The position numbers and the translations under genes are program-made. A DNA stretch of 32,000 nt, from assembly GCA_963706795.1 (NCBI GenBank), contig OY970170.1:600001-632000 (forward strand), written 5' to 3'. This document shows, in pieces, positions 2,830-32,000 of the stretch (position 1 is the stretch's first letter; each line of letters starts with the position of its first letter). Under the pieces are notes generated by a model that made no database searches, was not told where the DNA came from, and saw only the letters and a list, made by a program, of their open reading frames with translations. The stretch comes from Candidatus Saccharimonadota bacterium. Lineage in GTDB: Bacteria; Patescibacteriota; Gracilibacteria; BD1-5; UBA2023.

Positions 2830-2883
2830 ATTTTGTTTTGGTTTTTGTCTAAAAATAGACTACCGCAAATTCTCTCAGGCGTC

Positions 2884-2915
2884 AAAAAAGCGAGCCCTTG
2901 CGGACTCGCTTTTTT
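2884..2915 (-). terminator. rho-independent terminator downstream of the rpsU-like gene
   Basis: aaaaaagcgag-cccttgcgga-ctcgctttttt: a GC-containing stem flanked by an A-run and a T-run, located 12 nt after the TAG at 2927-2929. Confidence 0.5.
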
Positions 2916-2926
2916 GTGGTGTAAAA

Positions 2927-3130
2927 CTATGCGATGTTATTCTTTGCCGCAGTGCGGTAAAATTCGCGAACAATCGCTTTTTCTCGGAGCTTTCGCACCG
3001 AAACCTTACGCTGGTGTTGAGCGGAAGCTTTAAGCTTGTTGTTGGTGCGTGTCTGGAAGAACATCTTCTTGTAGCGAAGAATGAGCTTCTCGTTTGACTC
3101 TGATGAGTTCTTAATCGCGTAAACAATCAT
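2927..3130 (-). CDS. rpsU: probable 30S ribosomal protein S21
   Basis: 67-aa, very basic ORF. The N-terminus 'IKNSSESNEKLILRYKK' resembles the S21 'V..nEs.e.alrRFKr' pattern and the C-terminus is K/R-rich. It has a good SD (aaggag, 9 nt upstream) and a sigma70-like promoter. Confidence 0.55.
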   Translation of the reverse strand: MIVYAIKNSSESNEKLILRYKKMFFQTRTNNKLKASAQHQRKVSVRKLREKAIVREFYRTAAKNNIA

Positions 3131-3170
3131 GGGTTTCTATCTCCTTTAGAGACTAAAAAATATTGCGGGA

Positions 3171-3198
3171 AGTGTATCGGAGAATGCACTAAAGTCAA
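3171..3198 (-). promoter_or_regulatory. putative sigma70-type promoter for the rpsU-like gene
   Basis: On the minus strand: TTGACT (3198..3193), 16-nt spacer, TACACT (3176..3171), about 40 nt upstream of the ATG at 3130. Confidence 0.3.
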
Positions 3199-3218
3199 AA
3201 GTTTGCACCACAACAGCA

Positions 3219-3497
3219 CTAATCCTTCCAATTCCACCACTTGAGAAGCTCGGGATCGTGTGTTTTGTTGCTTGCGAAGTACACCGCACATTTGAATGTA
3301 TAGAGCATGCAGCGATCTACTATTTGTCATTTTTTCCTACAGTGCTCCGCATAGAGTTGATTAGGATTTTTGTCTATGAGATCAGCGATTTTATGGATTC
3401 AGAGCTCATATAGATCGTGAGCAACCGCCTTCCCAACTCAGGGGATCATGCGGAGTTCTCGTAGAATAGACTCTTTGGTCGCGGGATTATTTACCAT
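3219..3497 (-). CDS. small helix-hairpin-helix protein (Cdd1/'pathogenicity locus'-like), 92 aa, 3 in-frame TGA
   Basis: Not visible with the standard code. Under code 25 it reads MVNNPATKESILRELRMIPGVGKAVAHDLYELGIHKIADLIDKNPNQLYAEHCRKKGQIVDRCMLYTFKCAVYFASNKTHDPELLKWWNWKD. TGA supplies the G of the HhH 'PGVGK' and 'ELGI' motifs. The ATG at 3497..3495 overlaps the toxin stop (ATGGTAAATAA). Confidence 0.7.
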
Positions 3498-3756
3498 AGA
3501 GATGGGAGTGAGTTCCGAGTGTAATGAGCGTCACAAGCTCGTATGTTCCGTCCTTTTCTTCAAAAATAATTCTCAGGTCGAATGCGGCGTCTATGGAGCG
3601 AAGGTTCTTGTATTTTCCGTTCAATACGTGATTTCGAAGATCTCTATGAAATGGGTTTTCTCTGAAAAGTCACAAAGATTTTTCTACAAATTCTCTGTCT
3701 TGGGTAGAGAGTTTTGCGAATTGCTTGAGGTATTTCTTTTTGAGTAAGATACGCAC
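3487..3756 (-). CDS. type II toxin, RelE/YafQ-family mRNA interferase (89 aa, one in-frame TGA)
   Basis: GTG start at 3756. Translation: VRILLKKKYLKQFAKLSTQDREFVEKSLGLFRENPFHRDLRNHVLNGKYKNLRSIDAAFDLRIIFEEKDGTYELVTLITLGTHSHLYGK. It has the RelE/YafQ layout, including a C-terminal 'GTHSHLY' (compare YafQ 'GTHAALF'), and sits directly downstream of a DinJ-like gene. Confidence 0.75.
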
Positions 3757-3792
3757 ACAAAAAATATGAAGAAATTGTGCGCTATCTTCGAA

Positions 3793-4086
3793 TTATTCTT
3801 GGGGAATCTTTTTCATGTATTCTATTGCTTCTTCCATTGATTCAAAAAGTATTCCAGGATCTTTTCCAGATCTGTGTTCTTCTATGGCTTCCATAATTTG
3901 GGCGCTTTCTTCAGGAGTAAATCCCTCTTCGTCCAAGTCGACTCGAAGCCTGCGATGACGCACAAAATTAGCAAGCAAAATATTTGCTACTGTGCTCAGG
4001 TTTGTACCCATTTCTTTAGCAAGAATCTGAGCATCTTGTTTGATTTTCGTATTCAGGCGAATACTGGTGGCAGTTGTTTGATTCAT
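3793..4086 (-). CDS. type II antitoxin, DinJ/RelB family (ribbon-helix-helix)
   Basis: 97-aa ORF. The N-terminus 'SIRLNTKIKQDAQILAKEMGTNLSTVANILLANFVRHRRL' matches the DinJ RHH pattern and the C-terminus is acidic. It lies 36 nt upstream of the toxin, in the same frame. Confidence 0.75.
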   Translation of the reverse strand: MNQTTATSIRLNTKIKQDAQILAKEMGTNLSTVANILLANFVRHRRLRVDLDEEGFTPEESAQIMEAIEEHRSGKDPGILFESMEEAIEYMKKIPQE

Positions 4087-4088
4087 AG

Positions 4089-4108
4089 TACAATGTATAT
4101 ACGTTGTA
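4089..4108. promoter_or_regulatory. 20-bp near-perfect palindrome, candidate TA operator
   Basis: tacaatgtatatacgttgta equals its own reverse complement except for one symmetric pair. It starts 3 nt upstream of the antitoxin ATG. Confidence 0.35.
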
Positions 4109-4133
4109 TATTAATCATTTCCAAGCTATTCAC

Positions 4134-4167
4134 AAAAAAATCTCTCCGAATCGGAGAGATTTTTTTA
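4134..4167. terminator. bidirectional rho-independent terminator after typA
   Basis: aaaaaaa-tctctccg-aat-cggagaga-ttttttt: a 9-bp stem and 3-nt loop, with an A-run and T-run on either side. It lies 11 nt after the typA TAA. Confidence 0.65.
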
Positions 4168-4177
4168 CCTTGAGGAA

Positions 4178-6246: not shown

Positions 6247-7446
6247 GTGAGCAAGAAAATTACAAAAACCATGACAAAATTGAATATGTCTTCGCTCAAA
6301 AAGCAGAAGGCCGAAGATACCGCTCGCGAAGCCATCGTTGCAGTAACTCCAGAACCTGCTGCGGTTATTCCTGTCGAATCCGCACCGAAAGCTGACTCCC
6401 CAAAGGCGCGTATTTCACTCGCAGGTTTTAAAAAAGAGCCCGAAAAGGTGGCTGAGTCAGTAATTTCAGAACCGGTTGTAATGACCCAGGTTCCGAATAC
6501 TGCTGAGATTGAAGTTCCACTGCCATCTACCTCGCTTGCACAGGAAGCGACGGCTGTAGAGGCGCTCGTGACTTCTCTCGAATCCGAGGCAAAGTCAGAG
6601 CCAGCACCACATCCAGACTTTATTCCTGAGGCGGCAATCGTACCAATTCAACCTAAGGAATATTTCCCAAATCTTGATATGGGTGACGCTGATGATCTCT
6701 TTAAGGATCTCGAAGGCGGCATTATTATCGAAGCTCCTAAAGAAGAAGGAAAGACAGCCGAGATTTCTCTTCTAGAACCGACCGAAGTATTTACTCTTCC
6801 ACAGATGGTCGAAGTGGGGCCTGAGCCAGAAGTGACTCAACCTGCTTCGGCACTTCCTGAGATGATCGAATTTACTACGCCAGAGAGTTCTGAGGCGGCA
6901 ACGGAGATTTCGAACGCTTCTGACTCAGTGGCTCCTCTCGAACAGGAATCACCTTCTGTGCAAAATGCAGAGATTCCTCCTGTAAAGCCAGTTCTCAGTG
7001 GTCTCGCTGCATTTATGAACAATAAAAAGCGAATGCGTTTTGCAGGAATATTCGCTTCAATTTTAGGTATCGTGGTAGTCTGACTCGTGGTTGGTACGAA
7101 CATGCTTTCTCGTAGTCAGGTTCCTCCACATGTAGTCTCGACGGGCGCAACCGCCATAAAGCCAAAACCGGTAGTTGCCGTAACGCCTCCTGTAGCTTCG
7201 GGGGCACTTGCTCCAACAACTGCAACTGGTGGGCTCACAGAGTCTGGTGCAACTAATACAGGAGTTGCTAGTGGTACGGGCATGGTAGCTGCTGGTCCAG
7301 GAACTCAGACTGGAGCTACGTTGACTACTTCCACTGGTGCGGCAGTGCCCGATATGACCACAGCTACCGGCTCAACAATTACATATCCTAAGGCAAATAC
7401 GACGGTGAATTCGATTCGAACACCAAATGTTCATAAGCCTCGTTAG
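6247..7446 (+). CDS. low-complexity single-pass membrane protein (acidic P/E/A-rich N-half, T/G/A-rich C-half), hypothetical
   Basis: ORFs 6247..7083 and 7087..7446 are in one frame, joined by a TGA at 7081-7083 that lies inside the only hydrophobic segment (FAGIFASILGIVVV-G-LVVGTNML). The stop is TAG and a strong terminator follows. Confidence 0.55.
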
Positions 7447-7451
7447 AGAAG

Positions 7452-7475
7452 AGCGTCCTTCAGGGCGCTTTTTTC
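7452..7475 (+). terminator. rho-independent terminator
   Basis: agcgtcc-ttca-gggcgct (7-bp stem including one G:U pair, 4-nt loop) followed by tttttt. It begins 6 nt after the stop. Confidence 0.7.
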
Positions 7476-7509
7476 TTGGATTTTTTGGTCTTTCGTCTAT
7501 GCTCTCTGC

Positions 7510-8268
7510 ATGCAAACTGGCCAATTCTCTCGCTTTGTAACCAAGGCGATCAATACGATTTTTACTCTGATCCTGCTTGGTCTCACGGTGCTCGCACTTT
7601 TTCGTCCAGATCTCGTGGAGCGTGCAATTCTCTTTATTGGCGATCAGATTAAACTCATCGGCGCATGGAATTACTTGATAGTATTTCTCTCGAGCTGTAT
7701 CGAATCTTTTCCTGTCATTGGTGTCTTGATTCCAGGGCAGCAGGTGATGCTTTTGGTTGGCGGATTTTATGGACATGACCATCTGATTGGTGTACTCATT
7801 CTCTCTTCTCTTGGCGCAATGCTCGGCAATTGGATCGGATATATTCTCTGAGTTTCGCATGGGAAGGCGTTCCTTCATCACTATGGCGATACCTTTGGCA
7901 TAGGTAAAACCGAGCAGAAGATTCTTGAGAAGCAGATCATCAAAAATGGCCCTTGGTTTATAGTGCTGGGTAAATTCCATAATTTTACTCGTTCATTTGT
8001 GCCATTTATCGCTGGTGCAATGGGAATGAAGGCAAAAAGTTTTTGGCCATACAATCTCATAGGTTCCGTTATTTGGGCTTCCACTATGATGATCTTGGGA
8101 ATATTTTTTACAACCTATCTCAAAGTGATCCTTAATTCTATTGGATATGTATTTTTGGGTATTATCACTGCCACGGTGATCTATATTTCTCTCTTTAAGC
8201 GGGCTGAATTTAGGGAATATATGCGTGAGAAACGACTTGAACTCGAATTAAAATCTCAAGGTAAATAA
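7510..8268 (+). CDS. DedA/SNARE-associated family membrane protein (one in-frame TGA at 7849-7851)
   Basis: ORFs 7510..7851 and 7963..8268 are in the same frame with no other stop between them. Motifs: 'ESFPVIGVLIPGQ', 'GNWIGYILGVSHGKAFLHHYG' and 'GKFHNFTRSFVPFIAGAMGM'. Confidence 0.8.
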
Positions 8269-8269
8269 T

Positions 8270-9406
8270 ATGACTCTCGAACTCATTACTCGATTCTTTT
8301 TTATTTTCGGAGCTTCTACATTGATATCGTGTGCTCTGTTTTGGGCGGTACTCCGATACTTTCCAAAGTTGGGACTATTGGATAATCCAGGTCCATATGG
8401 ACACGATCGAAAACCCGTGCCATTTGGAGTGGGCATTGTTCTCTATCTCAATTTCTTGATCTGTTCGCTCGCGTTACTCGGCATTTCCGAAAAACTCGTA
8501 GTATTGCTCATACTCGGAGCGATCGTCACGGCCGTGAGTTTCCTTGATGATCTTGATACTATATATAAGTACAATGAGAAAGATAAAGCCGGTAAAACGG
8601 GTGAGATGATCAAGCCTCGAGAAACTCCGTTTGCGGTTCCAGCTAAGATCCGACTGGCACTTCAGATCCTTGTGGGGCTGATAGTTGGGCTCACGAGTAT
8701 CAAGATCAGCTATGTCTCTAATCTCTTTGGTGGTATCTTGCAGCTCGATTGGCTTTCATTTACTGCATTCGGATTTGAAGTCTTCATTATCCCAGTGCTT
8801 TTTACGATCGCGTGGTATGTGCTCGTATTTAATAGCGTCAATTGGAGCGATGGAGTTCCAGGATTGACTTCTGGCCTGACATCGATTGCATTTATAGTCA
8901 TCGGGATTCTTACGGTCCGATTTTATCTCGTGGATCAGACTCCTGCACTTCATGAAAATTCGATATTTGTATTCTCAATCTTGGCGATTTGTATTCCTGC
9001 AGCACTGATTGGTTGGTTTTTAGGAATGCGTCCACGAATACTTCTCGGAGACAGTGGTACGATGTTCGCGAGCTTTATTATCGCTTCACTCGCGCTCTTG
9101 GTGGGCTGAAAGGTTGCAACGGTTGCAACCGCTCTGGGTGTCTATTTGATTGATGCATTTTACGTAATCTTTGCCCGTATTCTCAACGGTAAAAACCCAC
9201 TGAAGGGCGATCGTATTCACCACCTGCATTATCGACTTATGGCGATAGGCATGTCCGAATCAGCTATTCGTATATTTGTTTGGTCGCTTTCATTTCTTTT
9301 TGGAATGGCGGCTGCATTTTTGGATAAAGTGGGTAAGATTATTCTGTTCGTTGCGCTGATGCTCGTGATTATTTTTATCACCAAGATTCTCTCCCTCAAA
9401 AAATAG
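8270..9406 (+). CDS. glycosyltransferase family 4 polyprenyl-phosphate sugar-1-phosphate transferase (WecA/TagO/MraY superfamily)
   Basis: ORFs 8270..9109 and 9146..9406 are in the same frame, joined at the TGA 9107-9109 ('LLVG-G-KVATVATALGVYLIDAFYVIFAR'). Motifs: 'DNPGPYGHDRKPVPFGVG', 'NSVNWSDGVPGLTSG', 'LLGDSGTMF' and 'DRIHHLHYRL'. Confidence 0.8.
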
Positions 9407-16970: not shown

Positions 16971-17074
16971 TGAAAAAACGCACAAATCAAGTCCTGGTGA
17001 TACTTACTGTGGGATTTCTTCTCCTTTCTTTTCTTCTTCCAATGATTTCTTTGTTTTTTCAGTCGAAAAATTAA
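16970..17074 (+). CDS. possible 34-aa single-TM micro-protein
   Basis: The ATG overlaps the upstream TAA (TAATG). Translation: MKKRTNQVLVILTVGFLLLSFLLPMISLFFQSKN. Its last 8 codons lie inside direct-repeat copy A. Confidence 0.3.
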   Translation: MKKRTNQVLVILTVGFLLLSFLLPMISLFFQSKN

Positions 17075-17150
17075 GAAAAAATTAATAATTGTGATTAGAA
17101 TGGTGAAAAGAAGCTTTCAAGGAGGAGGCTTCTTTTTTTATTTCTTGGAT
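17048..17150. repeat. direct repeat copy A (about 90-nt core plus weaker tail), contains a terminator-like hairpin
   Basis: The core 17048..17138 matches 18325..18415 with 5 mismatches by hand alignment. The hairpin is gaaaagaagc (17105-17114) / gcttctttt (17128-17136) followed by a T-run. Similarity resumes at 'atttcttggat' after a 7-nt indel. Confidence 0.85.
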
Positions 17151-17308: not shown

Positions 17309-18184
17309 ATGCAAAATCTTGAACGATCGCAAATTCCAGAAGATTATTTTCCGTACCGCTCGCATTCCCATCCTTTTTTTCACTGGCTCACAAAAAATTT
17401 GGATACATCCCACGCTTCAATCATCAATGAAGATGGCTGGTTCTGACTCATTAATCATTGCTTTTGGGGACACTTTTCAATCGCGTACTTCGAAAAGTGT
17501 GATCTTGAGCCCACGCAAGCACTCCTGATGAAATATGGTATGAAACGATGAATTGTATTCTGGTCTGGCTGGAGAAAGACAAAGCCTGCAGGACGTGGAT
17601 GGCTGAGATTCGGTTACAATTTTTCTCGAATGTATCATCACTCAACCCGTTCAGCATTTGTAGTTATCAACTCTGCAGAATACTGGGAAAAATGGACTTC
17701 AGGTGCACGATGACAGCGAAAAAAAATTCGTGACTTAGAGCAATCCGACACGATCCGCATCGATACCGACGTCAGTATTGAAGACTTCCTCATAATTTAC
17801 AACAGAACTGAAATATCCCATGGCTGGAAAACGTACTTAAGTCTAAGACAACAGTTTCTCTCTCAATATTATGGTGACAATATTCGGATCTTTCTTGCCT
17901 TTGTAGGTAATCGCCCATTGGCGGGAGCTATATTTCTCGATGACCAATCAACGAGCACATATCTCGTCGCTTTTCAAGATCCAGCAGGCAAGCCGTACCA
18001 TCTCTGACTCGCCATTGTTGATCGTTGGTGTGAACAGTCTTTTGAGAAAGGTTTTAAATACCTTGATTTCGACCATATGCAAAATACATGTGACTCGGAT
18101 TCATATGCTGGTTATACTCGCTTCAAGGCACACCTAACGGAATTTGAACTGCAGTTTCGTGAAGTATGGGCAAAATGGGTATAA
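17309..18184 (+). CDS. FemAB/CelD-like GNAT-fold acyl- or aminoacyl-transferase (291 aa, 4 in-frame TGA)
   Basis: Only open under code 25. The C-terminal half, 'IRIFLAFVGNRPLAGAIFLDDQSTSTYLVAFQDPAGKPYHLGLAIVDRWCEQSFEKGFKYLDFDH...YAGYTRFKAHL', resembles the FemAB-like / Acetyltransf_6 pattern (partner-binding strand, 'y..fD.g' and 'FK..'). TAA at 18182-18184. Confidence 0.55.
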
Positions 18185-18324: not shown

Positions 18325-18434
18325 TCTTTGTTTTTTCAGTCGAAAAATTAAGAAATAATTAATAATTATGATTAGGATGGTGAAAAGAAGCTTTCAATGT
18401 GGAGGCTTCTTTTTTCGTAAAAATTTCTTTGGAT
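18325..18434. repeat. direct repeat copy B
   Basis: See copy A. The same hairpin occurs at 18382-18391 / 18405-18413. Two of the five mismatches fall in the hairpin loop (gga vs tgt) and none fall in the stem. Confidence 0.85.
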
Positions 18435-18492: not shown

Positions 18493-21400
18493 ATGAAAAA
18501 ATATCTTCTTTCGATTCTCTTCTCACTTTTTGTACTTTTTCAGATTTCCTATGTTTCTGCATACGAAATCTTAAGTGATAGTGGTGCTCTTATTACGCAT
18601 AGCTCTCCTGATTCAGTTGTTTGGTCTTCCAATGGCAATGGTGGATATGAAGCATATGGCTATCAAATTCCACTCTACCTTTCTGGTACTATGGTCGCCA
18701 ATAAATGGGGTATAACATCCCTAACTAGTGGTGTCGATTCTTTTGGCGGTAAAAGCTACTATCATATGTATTGACCTAACTACAACTGGTGAGGATATCT
18801 TTCTATGTATTACCCAGTCTTTACAGACCATACAATGTATCGTTCAGGCATAGGGCGTTTTGAAGGTGGTCTTATGGTCTATGGTACTGGTTCAAGTCTT
18901 TACCGTTTTTGTACTTATGATGGAAATAATGGTGCTGTAAGCCTTTGAGGATGATGGAACTCTGGCTATCCACAGGGCAGATTCTTTTTTGGATCAGGTT
19001 CATCTACACAGAATTTTGCTGATTGTTCAAATAGCTATCTTTGAGGTACTTTAGTGAATTGGAATTGAGAATGATCAACAGCAACCTGTTCCGACTGAAT
19101 CAAAAATCAAGATGAGACAACTGTTGATAAAGGTTGAGTCTGCACTCCGATAATGTTCAGCATATGAAATAATCTATATATAAAGCCTGATGAAACTGCA
19201 ACTGATAATAAAGTGCTTTTTGCTTCTGGTGCGACTATAGGCGCCTTCTCCCATGATTGAATTGGAGCATATCTACAGCGTGCCTCTGACTTAAAGATTT
19301 ACTATAAACTACTTTCGAATACTAACGTTAATGATTTTGGAGTTGCCAGAGAAACAGTAAGGGGTGTAAACTCTAATCTTTGTACATTATGAGACTCCTC
19401 TGATCTCACTACTCTTATCGCTTGAGGCTGTGGTTTTTACATGTTCAAGAAGAATGCGTTAGATATGTCTAGTCTTACACCTATTCTTTCTGATCCAACT
19501 GAGCATCAGTATTCTGCTCTCCCCTCCTTCTTTACAGGTTCCTCAACCATAAGGTACCAGAATGCGTATCTTTGAGGTACGTATCTGAAAAATATTTCCG
19601 ATGCAAACCATTGAGTGCCATTTCTTGTCTCTTGATTTCCCGCCTATGCAAGCTCTTCACCTTATTGACAGGCATTACGTCTAGGCAATGACTACTACTA
19701 TGTGCATGGCCTAAGTGCAACTTATGGTAAACTTTGGAAGAAAAATGCTTTCGATTCTACTGAGTGAATTCAGTTAACAGATACGAATGTACTTGGTGTT
19801 AATAGTGGGCCAGGGACTGTATTTTCTGTAAAGGAAGATTGATCTAAGGTTGTATATAGGGAAAACTCCACTGGTTATCTTTATGTGTTACCAACTTCTC
19901 TTTCATTTCCCAGTAACTGAAATCAGGTTACGAATTTTGCTGTAACAAATCCTATGTATGGCTATGCGTCAGTGAGTCAATTAGCCACTTGTTCCGACTG
20001 AATCAAAAATCAAGATGAAACAAGTGTTGATACGGGCTGAGTATGTTCGCCAACGGCCACCACTCCAGTTGTTAGTAATATATGTCCTGCAAACATGTGT
20101 TGTTCGACGGATGTAGTAAGTAGCTCTCAGTCTAATAAACAGAACCTTCTTGACACAGCTTCGATAATGGCATCAAACATTGGCGATCCGATTACTCTAT
20201 CGTCGGGTGAGTCAATATATACGGATACTTTTCTCAAAACCCAAGCTCCAGGTGTGCCGTTTGAATTTACGCTGACCAATAAAACTCGTGCTACATACGA
20301 TGGTCCCGTAGGTTTTGGATGGGATCACAACAATAACATTTTCCTACGAGAAGAAACTGATGGCTCTGTGACGTATTACGATGGGAAGCTCGGGGTTTCT
20401 CCGTTCCCTAAAAATACGGATGGGACATTTGCTCGTAATAATTCTGCAAAAGCACAACTCACGAAGACGGGTGGATTTTATGATATAACATTCGACTCAG
20501 GGAATGTGTATCACTTCGCAAACAATCTCCGTGTTGCGACGATTACAGACAAGAATCAAAACATCACAACATTTACCTACGATACGAACAATCGCCTTAC
20601 TAAAGTAACTGATTCTCTCGGTCGAGATGCGGTGTATGTGTATTTTGATAATGGTCGCATAAAAACCGTTACAGATTCAAATGGTCGAGTAGCTACTATG
20701 GCTTATTATGGCACGAGTGATCTACTTGGGAACGAAAATGACCTCAAGTTTCTCATGATTACTAATCCTGATACATCAACAAAAACAGTTTCATATCAGT
20801 ATACCAAGGTTGGCGGCAATCAGATTCTCTCTCACAATATCAGTAAACTCGTTGATGCAAAGGGGCAGACGTATGTTGAGAATACATATGACACGAATGA
20901 CCGCGTAACAGCACAGAAGTTCGGAGATGGGACGCTTACATATGCCTATGTACTTGATGCAACAAACAAATACGTCACAAAAACTACAGTTACCAACAAG
21001 CGCGGAACTGTAACCGAATACACCTACGATCAGTACGGTAATAATCTCACTATGACGGTGCTTGCTGCGGTTTGAACTGGTTCGCTTGCATATACTTATG
21101 CGTATGATGTTTCTGGTCGCATGATTTCCGAGAAGAGGCCTCGCGGGAACGGTACAACGTATGTCTACGATATTCGTGGAAATATCCTCGAAAAACGTCA
21201 AAAGATGGACATGACTGCGGCCAATAATGACGCGGTCGATCTGGTGACGAAATATGTATACGATGTAAACTACCGCAATGCTACCGAGCGTACTCTCCCA
21301 TCAGGACTCAAGACAGCATATACCTATGATACAAAGGGGAATCTGACGGAGTCTAAGGTTGTTGCCGCAACTCTTAACAGTGGTACAACGACAGATATCA

Positions 21401-24400
21401 CGATCAGTAATGAATACGACACAAAGGGCAGACTCACAAAATCCACCGATCCAGAGGGGAATATTTCAACCTATGAATACGGGACTGGAAGTGCCATTAC
21501 AAAGATTACAAAGGGGCTTCGTAATTCGGGGGCAGGTTTGGATGCTACGGCTGCAAGAGTCATAACCTATACCTACGATACTCGTGAAAACCCACTCACA
21601 ACAACTGATCCCGAGGGGAATGTAAGTACATTTACATACGATGCATTCGATCGACTTACCTCTCAGCTTTCGGCAGCAGGGATTCGGAAGAATTTTGTAT
21701 TCAGTGCGAATAACAAGATCGAGAAAACGATCACTCCGCTCACGGAATCAGTGAGTCTCACTGAGGAAAATACCTACGATACCCTTGATGAAATCATCGG
21801 CACAAAACTCAGTAGTACTCCTTCTGATGCTCGTAATCTCGTCATTGTTCGTGACAAGAACGAGAATATTGTTTCGACGACTGATCCATCAGGACTCACA
21901 ACCAAGTACACTTACGATGCACTCGAGCGTGTTACCGAAAAAAGACTCGTCACAGTCGCAAATGATCCTACAAAGGATATCGTGACCCGTTACGAATACG
22001 ATACAAATGGAAATCAGATCAAGATCACTGATCCTATCGGTGCTATTACCGTGCTTACATACGATCTCTTTGATCGTCCAAAGACCAAGACGGATGCTCT
22101 CGGCACAAAAACAACCTACACCTATGATACGGTTGGAAACATCACAGAAACTCGCACAGAAAGTGCAACAGGAGCACTCCTTGCCAAGACATCTGTTGTA
22201 TTCAATTCAATCACAAGACTACTGACACAGTCAGTATGGAATCTTTCGACAAACACACCAATAGTGCAGTCGTACACATATGATAAAAACGGAAATATCC
22301 TCACGCTCACCGATCCACGAAGCGGAGTAACGACAACGTCATATTCTCTACACTGACAACCGGTTGAGATCACTGATCCTGTTGGAAATAAAACCCAGTT
22401 TACTTACGACAAGCGCGGACTCGTCATCACTCGAAAGTCACTCACAACTGACGGGAAAATCGCCACCACATCGTATCTCTACGACGGTGATGGACGGGTG
22501 CTTTCGAGCACAGATGCACTCGGCAATATCCAAAAATATGCATACGATGCATTTGGTCGCGTAACAAAAAAGACCGATCCAGCGAATAATATTACCGACT
22601 ATATCTACGATATATTCGGCAATCTTCTGGGTGAAAATGTTCGCTTTGGAACTGGAACGGTGACTACGTCATACGAGTATAACACTGCAAACCGAGTCAC
22701 GAAACTCACAGATGCAAAGGGAAATGTAACGACATATTCTTACGATATGCTTGGTCGCAAAACCAAGCAGACATCTGCAGATGGAAGTTTCACAACCTTT
22801 GTCTACGATGCAGCATCGCGACTTACAGGATCAACGGATGCAAATGGAACTGTCGTCACCAATGTCTACGATCCACTTGGTCGCCTCACTGCACGTACTA
22901 TTGCAACCGGTACAGGTGTACTTTGAACAACGAGTGAATCATATAGCTACGATCCACTCGGTCGTCTTACTTCTGCAAATGATAACCAAAGCGGAAGCCT
23001 GAATTTCACCTATGATAGCCTAGGCCGTCTCGCAACCGAGTCACAGGGAATGGGTCAGATCAGCTATACCTACGATCTAGCTGGAAATCGTACCAATATC
23101 ACAACGGGTATGGGCTATCTCGTGGATTTGACCTATGATCCACTGAGTCGTCTTTCGGCGGTTTCGTACAATGGTGTGAATATTGCGACATACAGTTATA
23201 CAGGGGCTTCCTTGAGTTCGCTTCAGTTTGCAAATGGGGTAACTACGAGTGCGTCTCAAGATATCATCGGACGACTGACGGCTCTTGATTTTGGGGCAAC
23301 TGGTCTTCCAGGTCGTGTGTTCACATATTCAGCAAATGGAAATATCCTCTCTGATGGACAAAAGGATTATACATATGACGTACTGAGTCGACTTACTCAG
23401 ACGCAGAGCCAATCTGGTGCACTCATTGCTCCTGAAAATACACTCTACGCGTACGATGCAGTTGGGAATCGTCTCGCAGAAAATAAACTGCAAGCCACTA
23501 AGTTGTACACGACAAATATGCTCAACCAGTACCTCTCCTTGAGTGATTCTACTGCATCAGGCGCAACTACGTTCACCTACGATCTCAACGGCAATATTCT
23601 TTCGAACGCAAAGTTCAAATTTGCATACGACTATCAAAATAGACTCGTAGAAGTTCGTAATACTGCAGATAATTCGCTCGTTGCACGCTATGTCTACGAT
23701 GTCCTCGGGCGTCGTACTTCCAAGTCAGTCGGAGATGCCACAACGACCTATCTCTATGCAGGAACTGATGTCATAAAAGAGTCCAAAAAGGCTACTCCAG
23801 AATCCACAGTACTCGATACCCTTCGAGTTTACGGCAATGGCGCAGATGACCTCCTTGCATACACGACTCAGGAATCTTCCGTTGCCCCTTCTGTCTCGGA
23901 AGAATACGCTTTTTGTCTCAAATCTGTCACGCCTTCCAAGGCATCTTTCCTCAAATATGGTTGGACAGCACTCGTAGACCGATGTAACGATCTCACGACC
24001 CAAACTCAGAACGCAACGATCGCAACACATACCCACTACCTCTTCAAAGATCACCAGAATTCCACCCTCGCCCTCACCGATGCCTCAGGCTCGCTCGTCG
24101 CGTCATACTCATACGATGCATTCGGACTTCCGTACATCGCAACTGGTTCAGGAGCATTCACTCCACTCTCTATCTACACTGGTTCGCTTCACAACAACGA
24201 CCGATTCTTCACCGGTCGTGAATATGACTCAGAAACAGGACTCTACCACTACCGAGCAAGAACCTACGATCCAATCCTCGGTAGATTCCTCCAAAGAGAT
24301 CCCGTAGGAACTGCCGATCAAATCAATCTCTATACATATGTCGGGAACAATCCTGTGCGGTTTGTAGATCCGAGTGGGATGGTTATTAAGACTACACTGA

Positions 24401-24888
24401 TGGAAGCACGAGGATGAATCGCTGGGTACTATGATTTTGTACAACAACAAAAAAAGAGTGATAATTTCTCAGACTATGGACCTGCGTATGTTTCAGATAT
24501 TACCATTGCTCCTGCATTCAATCTGATTGGAAATTGGGAGAAATTATCGTCAACCGAGAGAGTTGCTAATTCTGCATTAATAATCCCCTACGATAAAGTA
24601 ATTTCATTATGAGCGGAGGCGACAATATGAACTGTAAAAACATTTGAATTAGTAACTACGCATTGACTTACGAAGAGTAAAAAGGAAATGGCAAAATTAG
24701 CTCAGGATATTGCGGAGAACGGTATAAAAGATGCTGTAAAATATATAGAATTTAAAGGTACTAAATATTTAGTTGATGGTCATCATAGACTTGCAGCCGC
24801 GAAAGAGTTACTTATAAAAGAAATACCTGCAGAAGTAGTAAAACTTCCATATAATTGATATCAGACTGTAAAAGACCTATTCTTCTAA
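18493..24888 (+). CDS. giant secreted RHS/YD-repeat polymorphic toxin (2131 aa, 30 in-frame TGA) with C-terminal ParB/Srx-like 'DGHHR' domain
   Basis: I walked the frame codon by codon from 18493 and found no TAA or TAG until 24886-24888. All five standard-code ORFs (18493.., 20095.., 21121.., 22498.., 23050..) share this frame. Signal peptide 'MKKYLLSILFSLFVLFQISYVSA'. RHS core entry 'GDPITLSSGESIYTDT...GPVGFGWDHN'. There are dozens of YD repeats ('YTYD..GN', 'Y.YD.lgRl'). The core ends at 'DPVG-x19-DPSGM' (24367-24381). Confidence 0.85.
19087..19143 (+). repeat. intragenic repeat 1 encoding Cys module 'CSDGIKNQDETTVDKGGVC'
   Basis: This 57-nt segment is near-identical to 19990..20046, for example the shared tgttccgactgaatcaaaaatcaagatga. 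In both copies, both glycines flagged G in 'SD-G-I' and 'G-G-V' are TGA. Confidence 0.8.
19990..20046 (+). repeat. intragenic repeat 2 encoding 'CSDGIKNQDETSVDTGGVC'
   Basis: See repeat 1. It lies 903 nt downstream in the same frame, immediately before the RHS core. Confidence 0.8.
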
Positions 24889-24897
24889 AACCCAACT

Positions 24898-25374
24898 ATG
24901 GCACTTTGGCAATATCAATGTCGTCTTTACCCAAGAGAAAATATTAAAACTTTACTGAAGGCAGAGATCTGAAATTTTACTATTGATTTACTAGATGAAT
25001 TAAATTTATGGAAGGAATTTAAATTACAGAAAGAGCTTTTATTAGACCTGTCTAGGATTTTGCCTTCAGTAAAGTCCTGGTCAGAGGATGTCCTAGTGTA
25101 TGGTGATACAGCTACCAGTGATATACAAATAGACATTGAATGATGATCTATAAATTCCGTATCTTTCCGTTTAGATATACAACGACCGAATAATGTGTTA
25201 CTCGCACAATTTCTTGAATTGGTAACTAAATACGAATTAAGCTGTTTTAGTCAGAACGATATTATTCTAGTGCCAGATAAAATTAGTCTTATTAAGAGTA
25301 TTAGGAAATCACCTGCATTTAACTTTGTTGCTAATCCTGAAGAATTTCTCAGTTCGTTAACCAATATTACCTAG
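24898..25374 (+). CDS. candidate cognate immunity protein (158 aa, 3 in-frame TGA), family unknown
   Basis: The ATG lies 9 nt after the toxin TAA. Under code 25 the frame is open to TAG at 25372-25374 (MALWQYQCRLYPRENIKTLLKAEIGNFTIDLLDELNLWKEF...). It shares the same low-GC block as the toxin tip and has no signal peptide or TM segment. The functional call rests on position only. Confidence 0.55.
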
Positions 25375-28254: not shown

Positions 28255-29217
28255 TTAGGCGCTTTTCAAAGCGAAAATTGCGCTCTCAAGAGCAAAGACG
28301 AGCGATTCGTCTCACTCTCATGGGAGTCCGCCAACTTTTGAGAGTCGCTCGACTTCGATGAGTTTTTCGTACAGGGTCTCCAGTTTTGATCCAATAGAAG
28401 TACTGACTCGATCATATTTCGTAGCTACAAAATCACGAATACCGAGCATTTTTATTGTCTCGGTACTTGTTATACCCATTTTGCGCAGTGTCTTGTAATA
28501 GACAAATGCCCGAAGTCCAGCAAGTAGCACCGAAAAAACCGAACGGATTTCTTCTTGAGTGAGCACATGGCGAAGCTCATCAATTGAGGATTTTGCATTG
28601 CCACTGAGGAGTGCATCCGTGATCCTGAAAACCGAAACTTCGGTATTTTCGCGGATATGTTCGGTGATGGTGGTGATGTCGATATTGTCCACGAGGGAGA
28701 GTTTTTCGACTTCACCTTCGAGGGTTCGGACGTCTTCGTTGCATCGACGCACGAGCTCGAGGATTCAGGCTCGGTCGAGATGAGTGAGTCGCTCGCTCAC
28801 GTAGGCAATGCGATCTTGCTCACTTTTGAGGGAGAAGGTCTTCATCATGGCCATTTCCTCAAGCTTTCCAAAAACCTCTCCGGCGGTTGCTTCTTCGAAG
28901 CGGCGGAATATGACAAAATTGGACTCGGGAATTTCGCTCAATAAACCCGCGAGGGCTTCAAGTTTGGTATCCGCTTTTTTTGAAGCCTTCTCACCCTCGA
29001 TTTTTTCGGGACCTGAGAGGATAACGAGACGCTTCTCTGCAAGAAAGGGCGATGAGAGTAGCTCGCTTTTGAGCTGATCGTCATTTGTGGATTCCCAGTT
29101 GAGCGAAACCACATTCATTTCTCCGTATTTTTCGACAAAAATCCGCCTCCATTCGTCGATGTTGCGAGCGATGGTGCGTTCGAGATTTCCGCGGAAAAGT
29201 ATGAGATTTTTTGCCAT
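28255..29217 (-). CDS. holA: DNA polymerase III delta subunit HolA-like (320 aa, 3 in-frame TGA)
   Basis: ORFs 28765..29217 and 28318..28752 are in one frame. The apparent TGA 'stop' at 28318-28320 is read through for a further 20 sense codons (one of them another TGA), so the CDS ends at TAA 28255-28257. Delta-like features: 'LILFRG', 'LLSSPFLAEKRLVIL' and 'ITDALLSGNAKSSIDELRHVL'. Confidence 0.65.
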
Positions 29218-32000
29218 TATGCGTGCTTTTGCAGCAAGTATACCGTCTTCCTTAAAAAGTCGAGGTCGCCATCGTATTCGTTCTTGGCGGTGCGAATACG
29301 AGAGAGAGATTGAGGTAAAAATACTCCTTGTTCGTCGATCGCAAGAAATGTCCGAATCATCTGTGTTGTCGTATTTGGCGCAAAATCAAAGACATAATCC
29401 TTGAGCACTTTTTTGACTCCGATTACGCCGTAACGATCGAGATAAATGCGAGATTTGAGCACCAAGAAGAGATTTGCGATATTCTCAGGCAAAGCTTCGT
29501 GGCCTCGGACGAAGCTTTCTTCGGCGCTTTCGAGATCTTCGATATCGTCGACGGATTCGAGTGACCGATAAAATCCAATTTTGTCGTGTTCGCTCGCAAA
29601 ATACTCTTCGCTGACAAAGGTATTAATATCGAGCTCGATCTTCGTCTCTATTGTGTGGGTTTTGATACCGGTACGAAGCTCTTCGATTTTGGATTCGAGA
29701 AGCTTGAGATAGAGCGAGATTCCGGTCTCTTTTGCGCGTCCAGATTGCTTGATCCCGAGGATCTCACCGGCACCACGAATCTCGAGGTCGCGCATGGCAA
29801 TCTCAAATCCTGCTCCAAGATGTGAATTTTCGACAATGGCGAGTAAACGCTTCTTCGCATCTTCGGGCAAATGGTCTTTGCGATAGAGTAAAAAGCAATG
29901 TGCGTCCATGTCTTTGCGCCCTACTCGTCCTCGGAGCTGATGGAGTTGCGCGAGTCCAAATTCGTCTGCGTTGTCGATCAGGATGGTATTTGCTCGCAAA
30001 AAGTTTACACCGTTTTCGATTACGGTTGTTGTGAGAAGGATGTCATATTTTCCTTCTTTAAAATCCATGATGCGATCCTCGAGTTCTGTCGGATCGAGCT
30101 GGCCATGAGTGATGACGATTTTGAGTTTTTTGCCCGCAATCCGCATGAGCTCCTTGGCAGTACCTTCGAGTGAAGCAATGCGATTATGCAAAAATATCAC
30201 CTGACCACCACGATCGAGTTCGCCAGTGATAGCATCTCTCAGGACTTCTTCGCTCCATTTGGCAACGAGGGTGCGGATTGGTTTTTTGAGTGGGGGAGGT
30301 GTTGTGATCATTGAGATCTTACGAAGCCCTGAGAGCGCCATATTGAGGCTTCGCGGGATCGGTGTTGCTGAGAGGGAGAGGATGTCGAGATGCGCCTTCA
30401 TCGTGGTGATTCGCTCTTTGTCGATGACGCCAAATTTGTGTTCTTCGTCGACAATGAGGAGTCCGAGTCGCTTGCAGGTGATATCTTCGGAGAGGATACG
30501 GTGGGTTCCAATAACTATGTCGATAGTGCCTTCTGCCAGACCGTGGATGATCTCTTTTGCCTCGCGGGCGCTCGTCATGCGCGAGAGCGTTGCGATGCGT
30601 ATTCCTGTGCCATCAAATCTCTTTGCAAATGATTCAGCATGCTCATAGGCTAGTACAACTAATGGCGAAATTACCGCTACCTGCTTACCTCAGAGTACCG
30701 CTTTGTAGGCAGCATTCATAGCAACTTCCGTCTTCCCAAATCCGACGTCACCCGAGAGAAGTCGATCCATGGGTTCGGAACTTTCCATATCGCCAAAGAT
30801 TTCTTCGATCGAGCTGGTCTGATCGGCGGTGTGCTTGTAGGGGAATCGTGCCCTAAAATCTCATTCTTCCTTGCGGAATTTTGGGAAGGGATATCCCGTA
30901 GAAACCTTGCGTCTTGCATAGACATCCAGAAGCTCGGCCGCAGTTTTTGCGATTTCGTCCTCGGTGTTCTGAAGTGCGGTTTTCCAGATTGTTCCGCCGA
31001 GTCTATGGAGATTTGGATGCTCATCTCCGAGGTATTTTGTCAGTCTATAGAGCTCAGTAACTGGCACGTAGAGTCGATCGTCATCAGCGTATTCAATCGC
31101 AACATATTCGCGTTTCACGCCATTCATTTCTTTTTCGATGAGTTCGCGAAATATTCCGATCCCGTGCTCAAAATGAACGACGTAGTCATTGGGTGCAAGC
31201 GATAACAAAAGGTCGAGTGACTTCGCGGCACTGCGTCTCGTGCGCTTTACCGCAAAGAGTCGAGAGAGAATATCATCCGCAATCGCAAAATGATCTGCCG
31301 ATCGAAAACTCTCGATCGCAAGACGTGGAATTGTTTCGATTCATTTATTTGCCAGACTGTTATATGACAAAAATTGCTCGATCGCTTTGGGATGACGAGT
31401 ATAAAACCGCGTCTTTTCACCAAATGCCCGCAGATGGTCTTCGAGAGCTTCGAGCGAATCAATCGTTAGTGGATCAATCTCAAGAGAAGTGCTCTCGCGC
31501 GTACTTTCAAAACAGAGATATCTTGTAAGTCCCGATCGCAAATCATTTGCCAGTGCAAAAAATTCGAGATCAAAAGTTACAACTAAAACATCATTTAACT
31601 CACTCGAGAGCTTCTGATCTATGGACTCTGCAAACTCCGGAAGAGGTTCAGAATTAGCCGCAAAAATGATACAACTCTCAGGTTTTTCTTTGGGTTCGCC
31701 GCCAAGTGTTCTCAAGATGATCTCATCGAGCTCATCTCCAAAAAACGAAGCAATCACGATCCGATCGCTTCTACGAATATGGAGCTCACCTCCATCGATT
31801 TTATAAGTAAAATCCTTGCTGAGATGAGGTCCGTGGCTGTATCCCATCTCAAGAAGTCGACTCACTATATCATCGAGTCGGTAGGTTTTCCCACGAATAA
31901 ACTCAAGTCCTCATTTTGTTCGTTTATATTCGTGCCGTACTCGTTCATCAAAAAATCCAGTGGTCGTACAATAGAGTCCGTTTTTCTCGACTAAAAAGGA
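29217..32000 (-). CDS. mfd: transcription-repair coupling factor Mfd (partial; N-terminus lies beyond the window end; at least 4 in-frame TGA)
   Basis: One frame is open from 32000 to TAA at 29217-29219 under code 25, with TGA at 31911-13, 31341-43, 30861-63 and 30690-92. CarD/TRCF motif '[14 protein letters not shown]'. Helicase motifs '[14 protein letters not shown]', '[11 protein letters not shown]', '[12 protein letters not shown]' and '[11 protein letters not shown]'. The stop overlaps the holA ATG (TAATG). Confidence 0.9.

Follow-up and report, generated by a model that had tools for sequence, protein, structure and literature searches.

In the 32-kb window of contig OY970170.1 analysed here (the sole part of the source genome analysed; GC content 43.7%), nucleotides 18493–24888 of the plus strand form a single open reading frame (ORF) of 2,131 codons when TAA and TAG are the only stops and TGA is read as Gly. 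As judged from its sequence, the probable product of the ORF is a secreted polymorphic toxin of the RHS/YD type, from a Gracilibacteria-type bacterium in which UGA means Gly. The ORF is a mosaic, in which an N-terminal region and a C-terminal tip that are rich in in-frame TGA and poor in GC at third codon positions (GC3) flank an RHS core in which TGA is rare.

Organization of the RHS gene and its product

The ORF opens with a start codon and a putative Sec-type signal peptide, MKKYLLSILFSLFVLFQISYVSA ahead of YE (18493–18561), proposed by eye from its n/h/c pattern. There follow, all on the plus strand, subdomain N1 (residues 24–193; 18562–19071; 6 TGA and 25 GGN codons, GC3 0.26), a first copy of a Cys motif, TCSDGIKNQDETTVDKGGVC (19072–19152), subdomain N2 (residues 221–494; 19153–19974; 11 TGA and 17 GGN codons, GC3 0.30), a second copy of the Cys motif that marks the module junction (19975–20055), and a Thr/Ser/Cys-rich linker from the Cys motif to the RHS core (20056–20181), which contains no Gly codon and aligns with residues 301–390 of the relative P0002. 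N2, an orphan and the most TGA-rich stretch of the ORF, lies between the two copies of a 63-nt direct repeat (19080–19142 and 19983–20045; family D6), each of which is contained in one of the Cys motifs. The repeat copies are 87% identical and 903 nt apart and carry TGA-coded Gly at the same codons; the last two TGA codons of the N-terminal region, at 19999 and 20038, are in the second Cys motif. The N-terminal region is rich in Gly, Ser, Tyr and Asn and has no match in Pfam.

The DUF6531 and RHS/YD-repeat shell, referred to below as the core, spans residues 564–1963 (20182–24381), with TGA at 3 of 111 Gly codons. DUF6531 occupies residues 564–631, after which 15 RHS repeats are scored (Pfam RHS_repeat, E 2.6e-97). 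The core matches the solved Rhs cages 8h8a (E 1e-51), 7q97 and Tse5 8cp6. The motif YDPxxGRFxxxDP / DPxG is present at the end of the core and kept in six of six relatives; it is the predicted autoproteolysis site, at which the tip would start. The tip (residues 1964–2131 and the stop codon; 24382–24888; TGA at 5 of 12 Gly codons) consists of a linker and then a putative ParB/Srx-like toxin domain (..VDGHHRLAAAKE..). A gene for a 158-residue protein, the predicted immunity gene, follows on the plus strand (24898–25374). The Pfam scan detected no type VI secretion system (T6SS), PAAR or VgrG domain.

UGA encodes Gly

The long ORFs of the window are open only with TGA as a sense codon. TGA falls on an invariant Gly of TrmD (LLP-TGA-VL, compared with LIPGVL in structure 3ky7) and on an invariant Gly of the S-adenosylmethionine-binding motif of HemK (DV-TGA-TGSG, compared with DLGTGTG in structure 1t43). 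In the widespread Cys motif and in homologues of the tip, too, Gly stands opposite TGA. Because TGA falls on invariant Gly positions, these alignments verify the predicted reading of UGA as Gly rather than Trp (genetic code table 25). No tRNA gene and no Rfam family was found in the window. A tentative placement in the Gracilibacteria/Absconditabacteria clade comes from the nearest RHS cores, some of which, all TGA-bearing, are listed by NCBI as 'Candidatus Gracilibacteria bacterium'; among the six core relatives that were fetched, six have in-frame TGA and two carry the NCBI name 'Candidatus Gracilibacteria'.

Public records mistranslate such code-25 genes. The entries P0002, P0004, P0006 and P0010 (loci L001, L002, L004 and L006) show W at every TGA, as in code 4, and the RHS gene of the window is recorded only as code-11 fragments (93, 47, 326 and 411 residues, among others; contig L090). 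Mistranslated records of this kind hide TGA-rich variable ends from ordinary homology searches.

The RHS gene is a mosaic in TGA usage and GC3

The 30 in-frame TGA codons of the ORF lie exactly where the original prediction had placed them: 22 between 18772 and 20038, within the first 516 codons; three in the core, at 21073, 22354 and 22924; and five in the 168 codons of the tip, at 24415, 24610, 24628, 24664 and 24856. The count of three in the 158 codons of the immunity ORF was likewise reproduced. Some Gly counts needed correction. The stretch 18772–20040 does comprise 423 codons with 22 TGA, but it contains 34 GGN codons rather than about 37, and TGA makes up 39% of its Gly codons; the first 326 core codons, for which 25 Gly had been reported, contain 30.

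Specifically, the share of TGA among Gly codons is 0.33 in the N-terminal region (residues 1–534; 22 TGA, 44 GGN), 0.03 in the core (3 TGA, 108 GGN), 0.42 in the tip (5 TGA, 7 GGN) and 0.75 in the immunity ORF (3 TGA, 1 GGN). Fisher tests on TGA against GGN distinguish the N-terminal region from the core (p=2.5e-8) and the tip from the core (p=1.8e-4). Base composition follows the same division, with GC of 0.389 and GC3 of 0.28 in the N-terminal region, 0.452 and 0.41 in the core, 0.347 and 0.24 in the tip, and 0.325 and 0.26 in the immunity ORF, which sits in the 600-nt segment of lowest GC within the 32 kb. Measured against the 20 other genes of the window, GC3 is an outlier in the N-terminal region (z=−3.0), the tip (z=−3.7) and the immunity gene (z=−3.4) and typical in the core (z=−0.6).

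The maximum-likelihood change points of TGA usage among Gly codons fall at codons 516–564 (nucleotides 20038–20182) and at codons 1974/1975 (nucleotides 24412–24415). A two-change-point segmentation of GC3, calculated on non-Gly codons, gives a log-likelihood ratio of 20.4, compared with a maximum of 11.9 in 200 permutations, with support for the change points at codons 534–843 and 1931–2080. At the end of the core, at codon ~1975–1980, overall GC breaks as well, falling from core to tip and from tip to immunity gene. The breakpoints near 20.1 kb and 24.38 kb that had been proposed from the sequence alone are consistent with these fits. The mosaic is real and statistically significant.

TGA share reads out local GC3

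Of the Gly codons TGA has the highest AT content, and a single synonymous change separates it from GGA; its share therefore tracks local GC3. A logistic regression of TGA versus GGN, with the GC3 of non-Gly codons as predictor and the window's remaining genes as training set, expects a TGA share of 0.29 in the N-terminal region, where 0.32 is observed, and of 0.39 in the tip, where 0.42 is observed. Fits trained on neighbouring genes in L002, L004 and L006 reproduce most of the values of the RHS segments there, with the core and tip of L006 above prediction. At the level of genes, the Spearman coefficients lie between −0.40 and −0.74. The TGA share is not an independent signal, and low GC3 is the primary anomaly. 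In code-25 genomes, the TGA share per Gly provides a cheap gauge of local AT-richness with which exchangeable modules of toxin genes can be delimited.

Abrupt breaks within genes are largely confined to RHS genes

Between genes, variation in TGA usage is not unusual. The TGA share ranges from 0 to 0.40 among the 20 other genes of the window (overall 0.087; heterogeneity p=2.7e-6) and from 0 to 1.0 among the genes at the relatives' loci, where it is negatively correlated with GC3 or GC (Spearman coefficients of about −0.40 to −0.86, some of them non-significant). Conserved or highly expressed genes of the relatives (ribosomal proteins L1, S6 and S18, SSB and AtpD) contain 0–1 TGA, and typA, the sortase gene and the FKBP gene of the window contain none, as originally reported; their identities were confirmed.

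Breaks within a gene, in contrast, are unusual. A one-change-point test on GC3 is non-significant in 12 of 13 long non-RHS genes and significant in seven of seven Gracilibacteria RHS genes. The original prediction had held that its case would fall if swings in GC and TGA were common within native genes; one of the 13 long non-RHS genes has such a swing. This gene is a partial mfd (29217–32000, minus strand; permutation p<0.003), whose GC3 rises from 0.37 over roughly 230 non-Gly codons at the start of the partial ORF to 0.52 beyond them.

The four mid-GC Gracilibacteria RHS genes (L001, L002, L004 and L006) have tips with a TGA share of 0.56–0.68 and a GC3 of 0.20–0.33, and cores with a TGA share of 0.04–0.23 and a GC3 of 0.45–0.54. 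The very low-GC relatives L003 and L005, both Gracilibacteria metagenome-assembled genomes (MAGs) with a locus GC of 22%, use TGA as the majority Gly codon throughout the RHS gene (0.59–0.91 of Gly codons, GC3 about 0.1), and their intragenic mosaic is far weaker. Directly upstream of the RHS gene of L004, at 6456–9333, are four consecutive genes without a Pfam match, with a GC3 of 0.18–0.26 and a TGA share of 0.57–0.67. These upstream genes show that low-GC3, TGA-rich islands cluster at RHS loci.

Composition breaks coincide with homology boundaries

The best matches of the core are RHS proteins of Gracilibacteria, at 34–50% identity over the full length, while matches in other phyla do not exceed 30%. 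A search of the full RHS protein against species-representative genomes found no close genome, only a Paludibacter RHS protein at 24% identity. Homology to the closest relative, P0002, whose core is 48% identical, starts at residue ~498, at the second Cys motif; no core relative has a related N-terminal body or tip. The locus as a whole shows no synteny with the relatives' loci except for a sortase gene.

A search of 5.8 billion proteins found no homologue of the N-terminal body beyond a 20-residue Cys motif, CSDGIKNQDETxVDxGGVC; a metagenome scan returned matches to the DGIKNQDE motif only, and a comparison with 121 RHS homologues by BLASTP and phmmer yielded nothing beyond the Cys motif. This motif is typical of surface proteins of the candidate phyla radiation (CPR) and also occurs in P0001 and at many metagenome loci. 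In an exhaustive HMMER and BLASTP search, residues 24–93, which are free of TGA, gave weak matches to the 'W.a.a.GG..Y.Y' Ig-like repeats (PKD/Y_Y_Y) of large surface proteins, a resemblance that covers approximately the first 45 residues of N1.

The composition breaks coincide with these homology boundaries. In particular, the second copy of the Cys motif marks both the start of homology to P0002 and the loss of TGA, and the motif also stands just before the core in L001 and L006, which makes it plausible that this copy of the repeat is an N-terminal recombination joint. A diversity-generating retroelement as the source of the 63-nt repeat was rejected, since the mismatches between the copies are not adenine-specific and the window contains no reverse transcriptase. 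A reverse-transcriptase gene (RVT_1) was observed in the relative L005, at 277–1410, ~8.6 kb upstream of the RHS gene; it may belong to a retron, a group II intron or a diversity-generating element.

The tip and the downstream gene form a putative toxin–immunity cassette

The tip is a putative ParB/Srx-like toxin domain, an assignment that draws on the profile of its family. On its own, the tip scores below threshold in Pfam (ParBc_2, E 0.017; ParB_N, E 0.032) and against ParB structures in the PDB (E 0.22), whereas the profile of the tip family matches ParB (4umk) and sulfiredoxin (6ky4) at E 2.6e-4, and four of six family members match Pfam ParB_N (best 8.5e-5). The motif DGHHRL, embedded in the block ...ENGI...(V/L)(V/L)DGHHRL.AA..., is invariant in the tip family. 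Zhang et al. reportedly described a 'Tox-ParB' class of polymorphic toxin systems in 2012. With Tox-ParB domains (Pfam ParB_N PF02195 and ParBc_2 PF08857) the tip has in common the DGHHRL block and the profile matches; it differs in scoring below threshold and in carrying five in-frame TGA codons.

Homologues of the toxin domain, 44–59% identical, are located in the C-termini of RHS and other polymorphic toxins of standard-code bacteria, the closest in MAGs of Phycisphaerales and Clostridia. In L008, from a Phycisphaerales MAG with 70% GC, the tip homologue is the C-terminus of an RHS protein; in L007, on a contig with 62% GC, it is an orphan cassette; at both loci TGA terminates genes. The ORF at 24898–25374 is homologous over its full length to the ORFs that lie directly 3′ of these ParB-like toxins (BLASTP, E 8e-13 for L007 and E 3e-15 for L008), which points to a cognate immunity gene with a predicted protective role. 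No homologue of the immunity protein was found in viral contigs, and the tip has no similarity to the tips of 120 core homologues.

Three relatives carry arrays of displaced partial RHS fragments downstream of the RHS gene (L002, 17240–22953; L003, 17568–20216; L005, 18261–21220), with the toxin and immunity domains Imm32, Tox-REase-9 and DUF4304. Such arrays are the classic signature of C-terminal displacement, or cassette replacement. The window has no displaced-tip array, and the gene after the immunity gene encodes a Yip1-domain membrane protein.

A probable modular Rhs mosaic read out in code 25

We consider it probable that the gene is a classical Rhs composition mosaic read out in code 25, and that the mosaic, although real, is largely ordinary. 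The three parts of the gene would have different histories, as the original prediction proposed, and the analysis bears this out: the core is conserved in the clade, neither the N-terminal body nor the tip resembles that of any core relative, and the breaks lie at homology boundaries and are rare elsewhere. The first module would be a lineage-specific N-terminal surface or targeting region (residues 24 to about 497); the second, a conserved junction made of the Cys motif and linker, followed by a clade-native DUF6531/RHS shell of genome-like composition; and the third, the exchangeable pair of a C-terminal ParB/Srx-like toxin and its immunity gene. The AT-rich modules may have been joined to the core by recombination at conserved junction motifs, and they may recently have resided in a gene pool of lower GC3 that also reads UGA as Gly. 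In-frame TGA would block their export to standard-code bacteria, not import from such bacteria.

In enterobacterial Rhs elements, the core is G+C-rich and the tip A+T-rich, with a trough of low G+C running on into the downstream gene; the N-terminus is clade-specific, and C-terminal displacement occurs (PMC2935791). In Serratia, the Rhs core has 67.7% G+C and the tip 46.4% (PMC2935791). The locus described here shares with enterobacterial Rhs (Hill 1994; Jackson et al. 2009, PMC2935791) a core higher in G+C than the tip and a trough into the downstream gene, and displaced tips are found in L002, L003 and L005. The original prediction had missed that AT-rich ends around a core of normal GC are the textbook arrangement of Rhs genes (PMC2935791). 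Unlike enterobacterial Rhs, however, the gene belongs to a code-25 host and its AT-rich parts are also rich in in-frame TGA; its core matches the GC of its own genome rather than being GC-rich relative to it; its N-terminal region also belongs to the AT-rich class; and it has a putative Sec-type signal peptide in place of a VgrG/PAAR T6SS context, with no displaced tips in the window.

The predicted layout of the gene resembles that of WapA-type RHS toxins of monoderm bacteria, such as WapA of Bacillus subtilis, in which a signal peptide and an N-terminal surface region precede the RHS repeats, a nuclease-type toxin forms the C-terminus and the immunity gene is adjacent. These toxins have no dedicated secretion-system genes nearby, as is also the case at this locus. 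The gene described here differs from WapA in that it has no recognizable wall-binding domain, only a weak Ig-like motif and two Cys motifs, and in that its putative toxin is ParB/Srx-like rather than a tRNase. The locus suggests that predatory or episymbiotic CPR-type bacteria possess putatively Sec-dependent RHS toxins whose modular plan matches that of Proteobacteria and Firmicutes.

Several observations weigh against this modular reading. No sequence was found that combines the same core with another N-terminal region or tip, or the same N-terminal region with another core, and recombination is therefore inferred from pattern; the sole second copy of the locus, on Logan contig L090, is 100% identical to the window. 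GC3 also leaves part of the TGA pattern unexplained. The TGA share of the core is 0.03 where GC3 predicts 0.10 (p=0.002), and the first ~200 core codons have a GC3 of 0.34 yet use TGA at none of 18 Gly codons (p=0.015). In addition, the regression reaches below the GC3 values spanned by its training genes, the 5′ GC3 change point is broad, and the intergenic GC of 0.40, which is to be compared with a GC3 of 0.25–0.29 in the modules, derives from only 2.5 kb. The extra depletion of TGA in the core beyond GC3 is not seen in relatives.

Alternative explanations

The alternative that survives best, although we regard it as unlikely, is decay in place, in which the parts of the gene have always been together and the weakly constrained ends have been driven towards AT and TGA by mutation, with no transfer. 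An N-terminal body without a homologue anywhere fits very fast evolution, and a TGA share that is explained by GC3 agrees with mutation as its source. Furthermore, the ratio TGA/(TGA+GGA) is 0.74 in the N-terminal region and 0.63 in the tip, not far from the 0.84 and 0.69 of T/(T+G) at fourfold sites, which is what mutational equilibrium would give; the core has 0.08 for the former ratio and 0.61 for the latter. Decay in place is hard to reconcile, however, with change points of TGA that are abrupt and fall at homology boundaries, with a tip and immunity gene that form a recognizable cassette common to distant phyla, and with the arrays of displaced tips downstream of the relatives' RHS genes. 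The intergenic GC lies well above the GC3 of the modules, which favours import from a lower-GC pool over decay. Import is also favoured because the TGA share of the modules (0.32–0.75) overshoots that of resident genes (0.087), which amelioration towards the host cannot do.

Translation tuning is more doubtful still. Under this explanation, UGA would be a slow or error-prone Gly codon that is purged where speed or accuracy matters, in the shell and in housekeeping genes, and tolerated elsewhere. It would account for the absence of TGA from TypA, FKBP and the sortase and for its near absence from the relatives' L1, S6, S18, SSB and ATP synthase beta subunit, and the shortfall of TGA in the core relative to GC3 points the same way. 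The conserved Gly residues of the window core are encoded by GGN at 56 of 56 positions, with the three core TGA codons at variable positions, and an ambiguity of U34 wobble between UGA and UGG has been described (PMC8629427). Tuning at the level of the gene would nevertheless give no internal mosaic, since one ORF has one expression level, and a 'ramp' of 500 codons combined with a TGA-rich 3′ end fits no positional model. The core of L004, moreover, has 23% TGA among its Gly codons. Conserved Gly positions are short of TGA in L001 and L005 but not in L002, L004 and L006, and site-level selection for accuracy was rejected as the main cause on account of this inconsistency across seven cores. 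Expression tuning, which the original prediction had offered as its own alternative, consequently holds up when whole genes are compared, such as TypA and FKBP here and AtpD and the ribosomal proteins in the relatives, and fails within the co-translated ORF, where the site test is inconsistent.

Least probable of all is that the core is the foreign piece, recently imported from a standard-code donor and not yet filled with TGA, an idea that would suit the scarcity of TGA in the core and in its low-GC3 beginning but is rejected on homology and composition: the nearest cores are those of Gracilibacteria, no standard-code RHS core that is more than 60% identical and closer than the Gracilibacteria cores occurs among 5,895 matches, the GC3 of the core is typical of the window, 9 of the 20 other window genes have a TGA share of 0.04 or less, and the relatives' cores do hold TGA, up to 31 codons.

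Code-lock acts at most in one direction

The original prediction had maintained that the TGA-rich flanking modules could only have come from another organism with UGA as Gly, so that exchange would be code-locked. This does not hold for the cassette, since homologues of the tip and the immunity gene exist in bacteria of 62–70% GC that use TGA as a stop. The occurrence of toxin and immunity homologues in the standard-code loci L007 and L008 implies that the cassette family crosses the code boundary, and an import followed by later gain of TGA is possible because a single synonymous change from GGA to TGA suffices. The code-lock is at most one-way, a barrier to export and not to import. As a point of logic rather than a finding, in-frame TGA must arise in a background where UGA is Gly, and it truncates the protein in a standard-code host.

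At least one toxin/immunity pair is common to a code-25 bacterium and high-GC standard-code phyla, and the alternative code has therefore not isolated the clade from the pan-bacterial toxin pool, at least for import. An asymmetric barrier of recoding to gene flow has already been discussed for phages and for synthetic recoded strains, and the present locus is a natural test case for such a barrier, not yet a demonstration. Liu et al. (2023, PMC10746230) used the density of in-frame TGA to tell code-25-adapted phages of Gracilibacteria from code-11-compatible ones. The logic of confinement is the same there, although it concerns whole phage genomes, whereas here it concerns modules of one chromosomal gene.

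We tentatively raise the possibility of a one-way ratchet, in which toxin/immunity cassettes enter recoded bacteria from neighbours with the standard code, acquire GGA-to-TGA changes and from then on circulate only within the clade, so that Gracilibacteria would act as a sink with a private, AT-rich and export-locked pool; the evidence for it is the excess of TGA in the modules (0.32–0.75) over the resident level (0.087). If so, TGA density would be a rough clock of residence in the recoded pool, and the Cys-motif repeat, where TGA is sharply lost, would be a second recombination joint, the N-terminal analogue of the C-terminal DPxG joint.

Other features of the window

Three small genes on the minus strand lie between typA and the sortase gene, all passed over by an ORF listing with a cut-off of 80 residues: a RelB-type antitoxin gene (3796–4086), a YafQ/RelE-type toxin gene (3487–3792, measured from stop to stop, with an uncertain start) and a gene for a Cdd1 helix-hairpin-helix protein (3219–3449). 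An RNA gene in the apparent 1.3-kb gap between typA and the sortase gene (2830–4177) was considered and rejected, as the region has no Rfam match and contains these small protein genes instead.

An element of ~90 nt is present in two copies that are 94% identical (17049–17138 and 18326–18415), both in low-GC intergenic regions (GC 0.33–0.34). The copies flank a GNAT/FemAB-like gene (17309–18184), and the second copy is located just upstream of the RHS gene. The element includes an A-run, a GAAGC...GCTTC hairpin and a T-run and is terminator-like in appearance, and the independent Logan contig L090 breaks at it.

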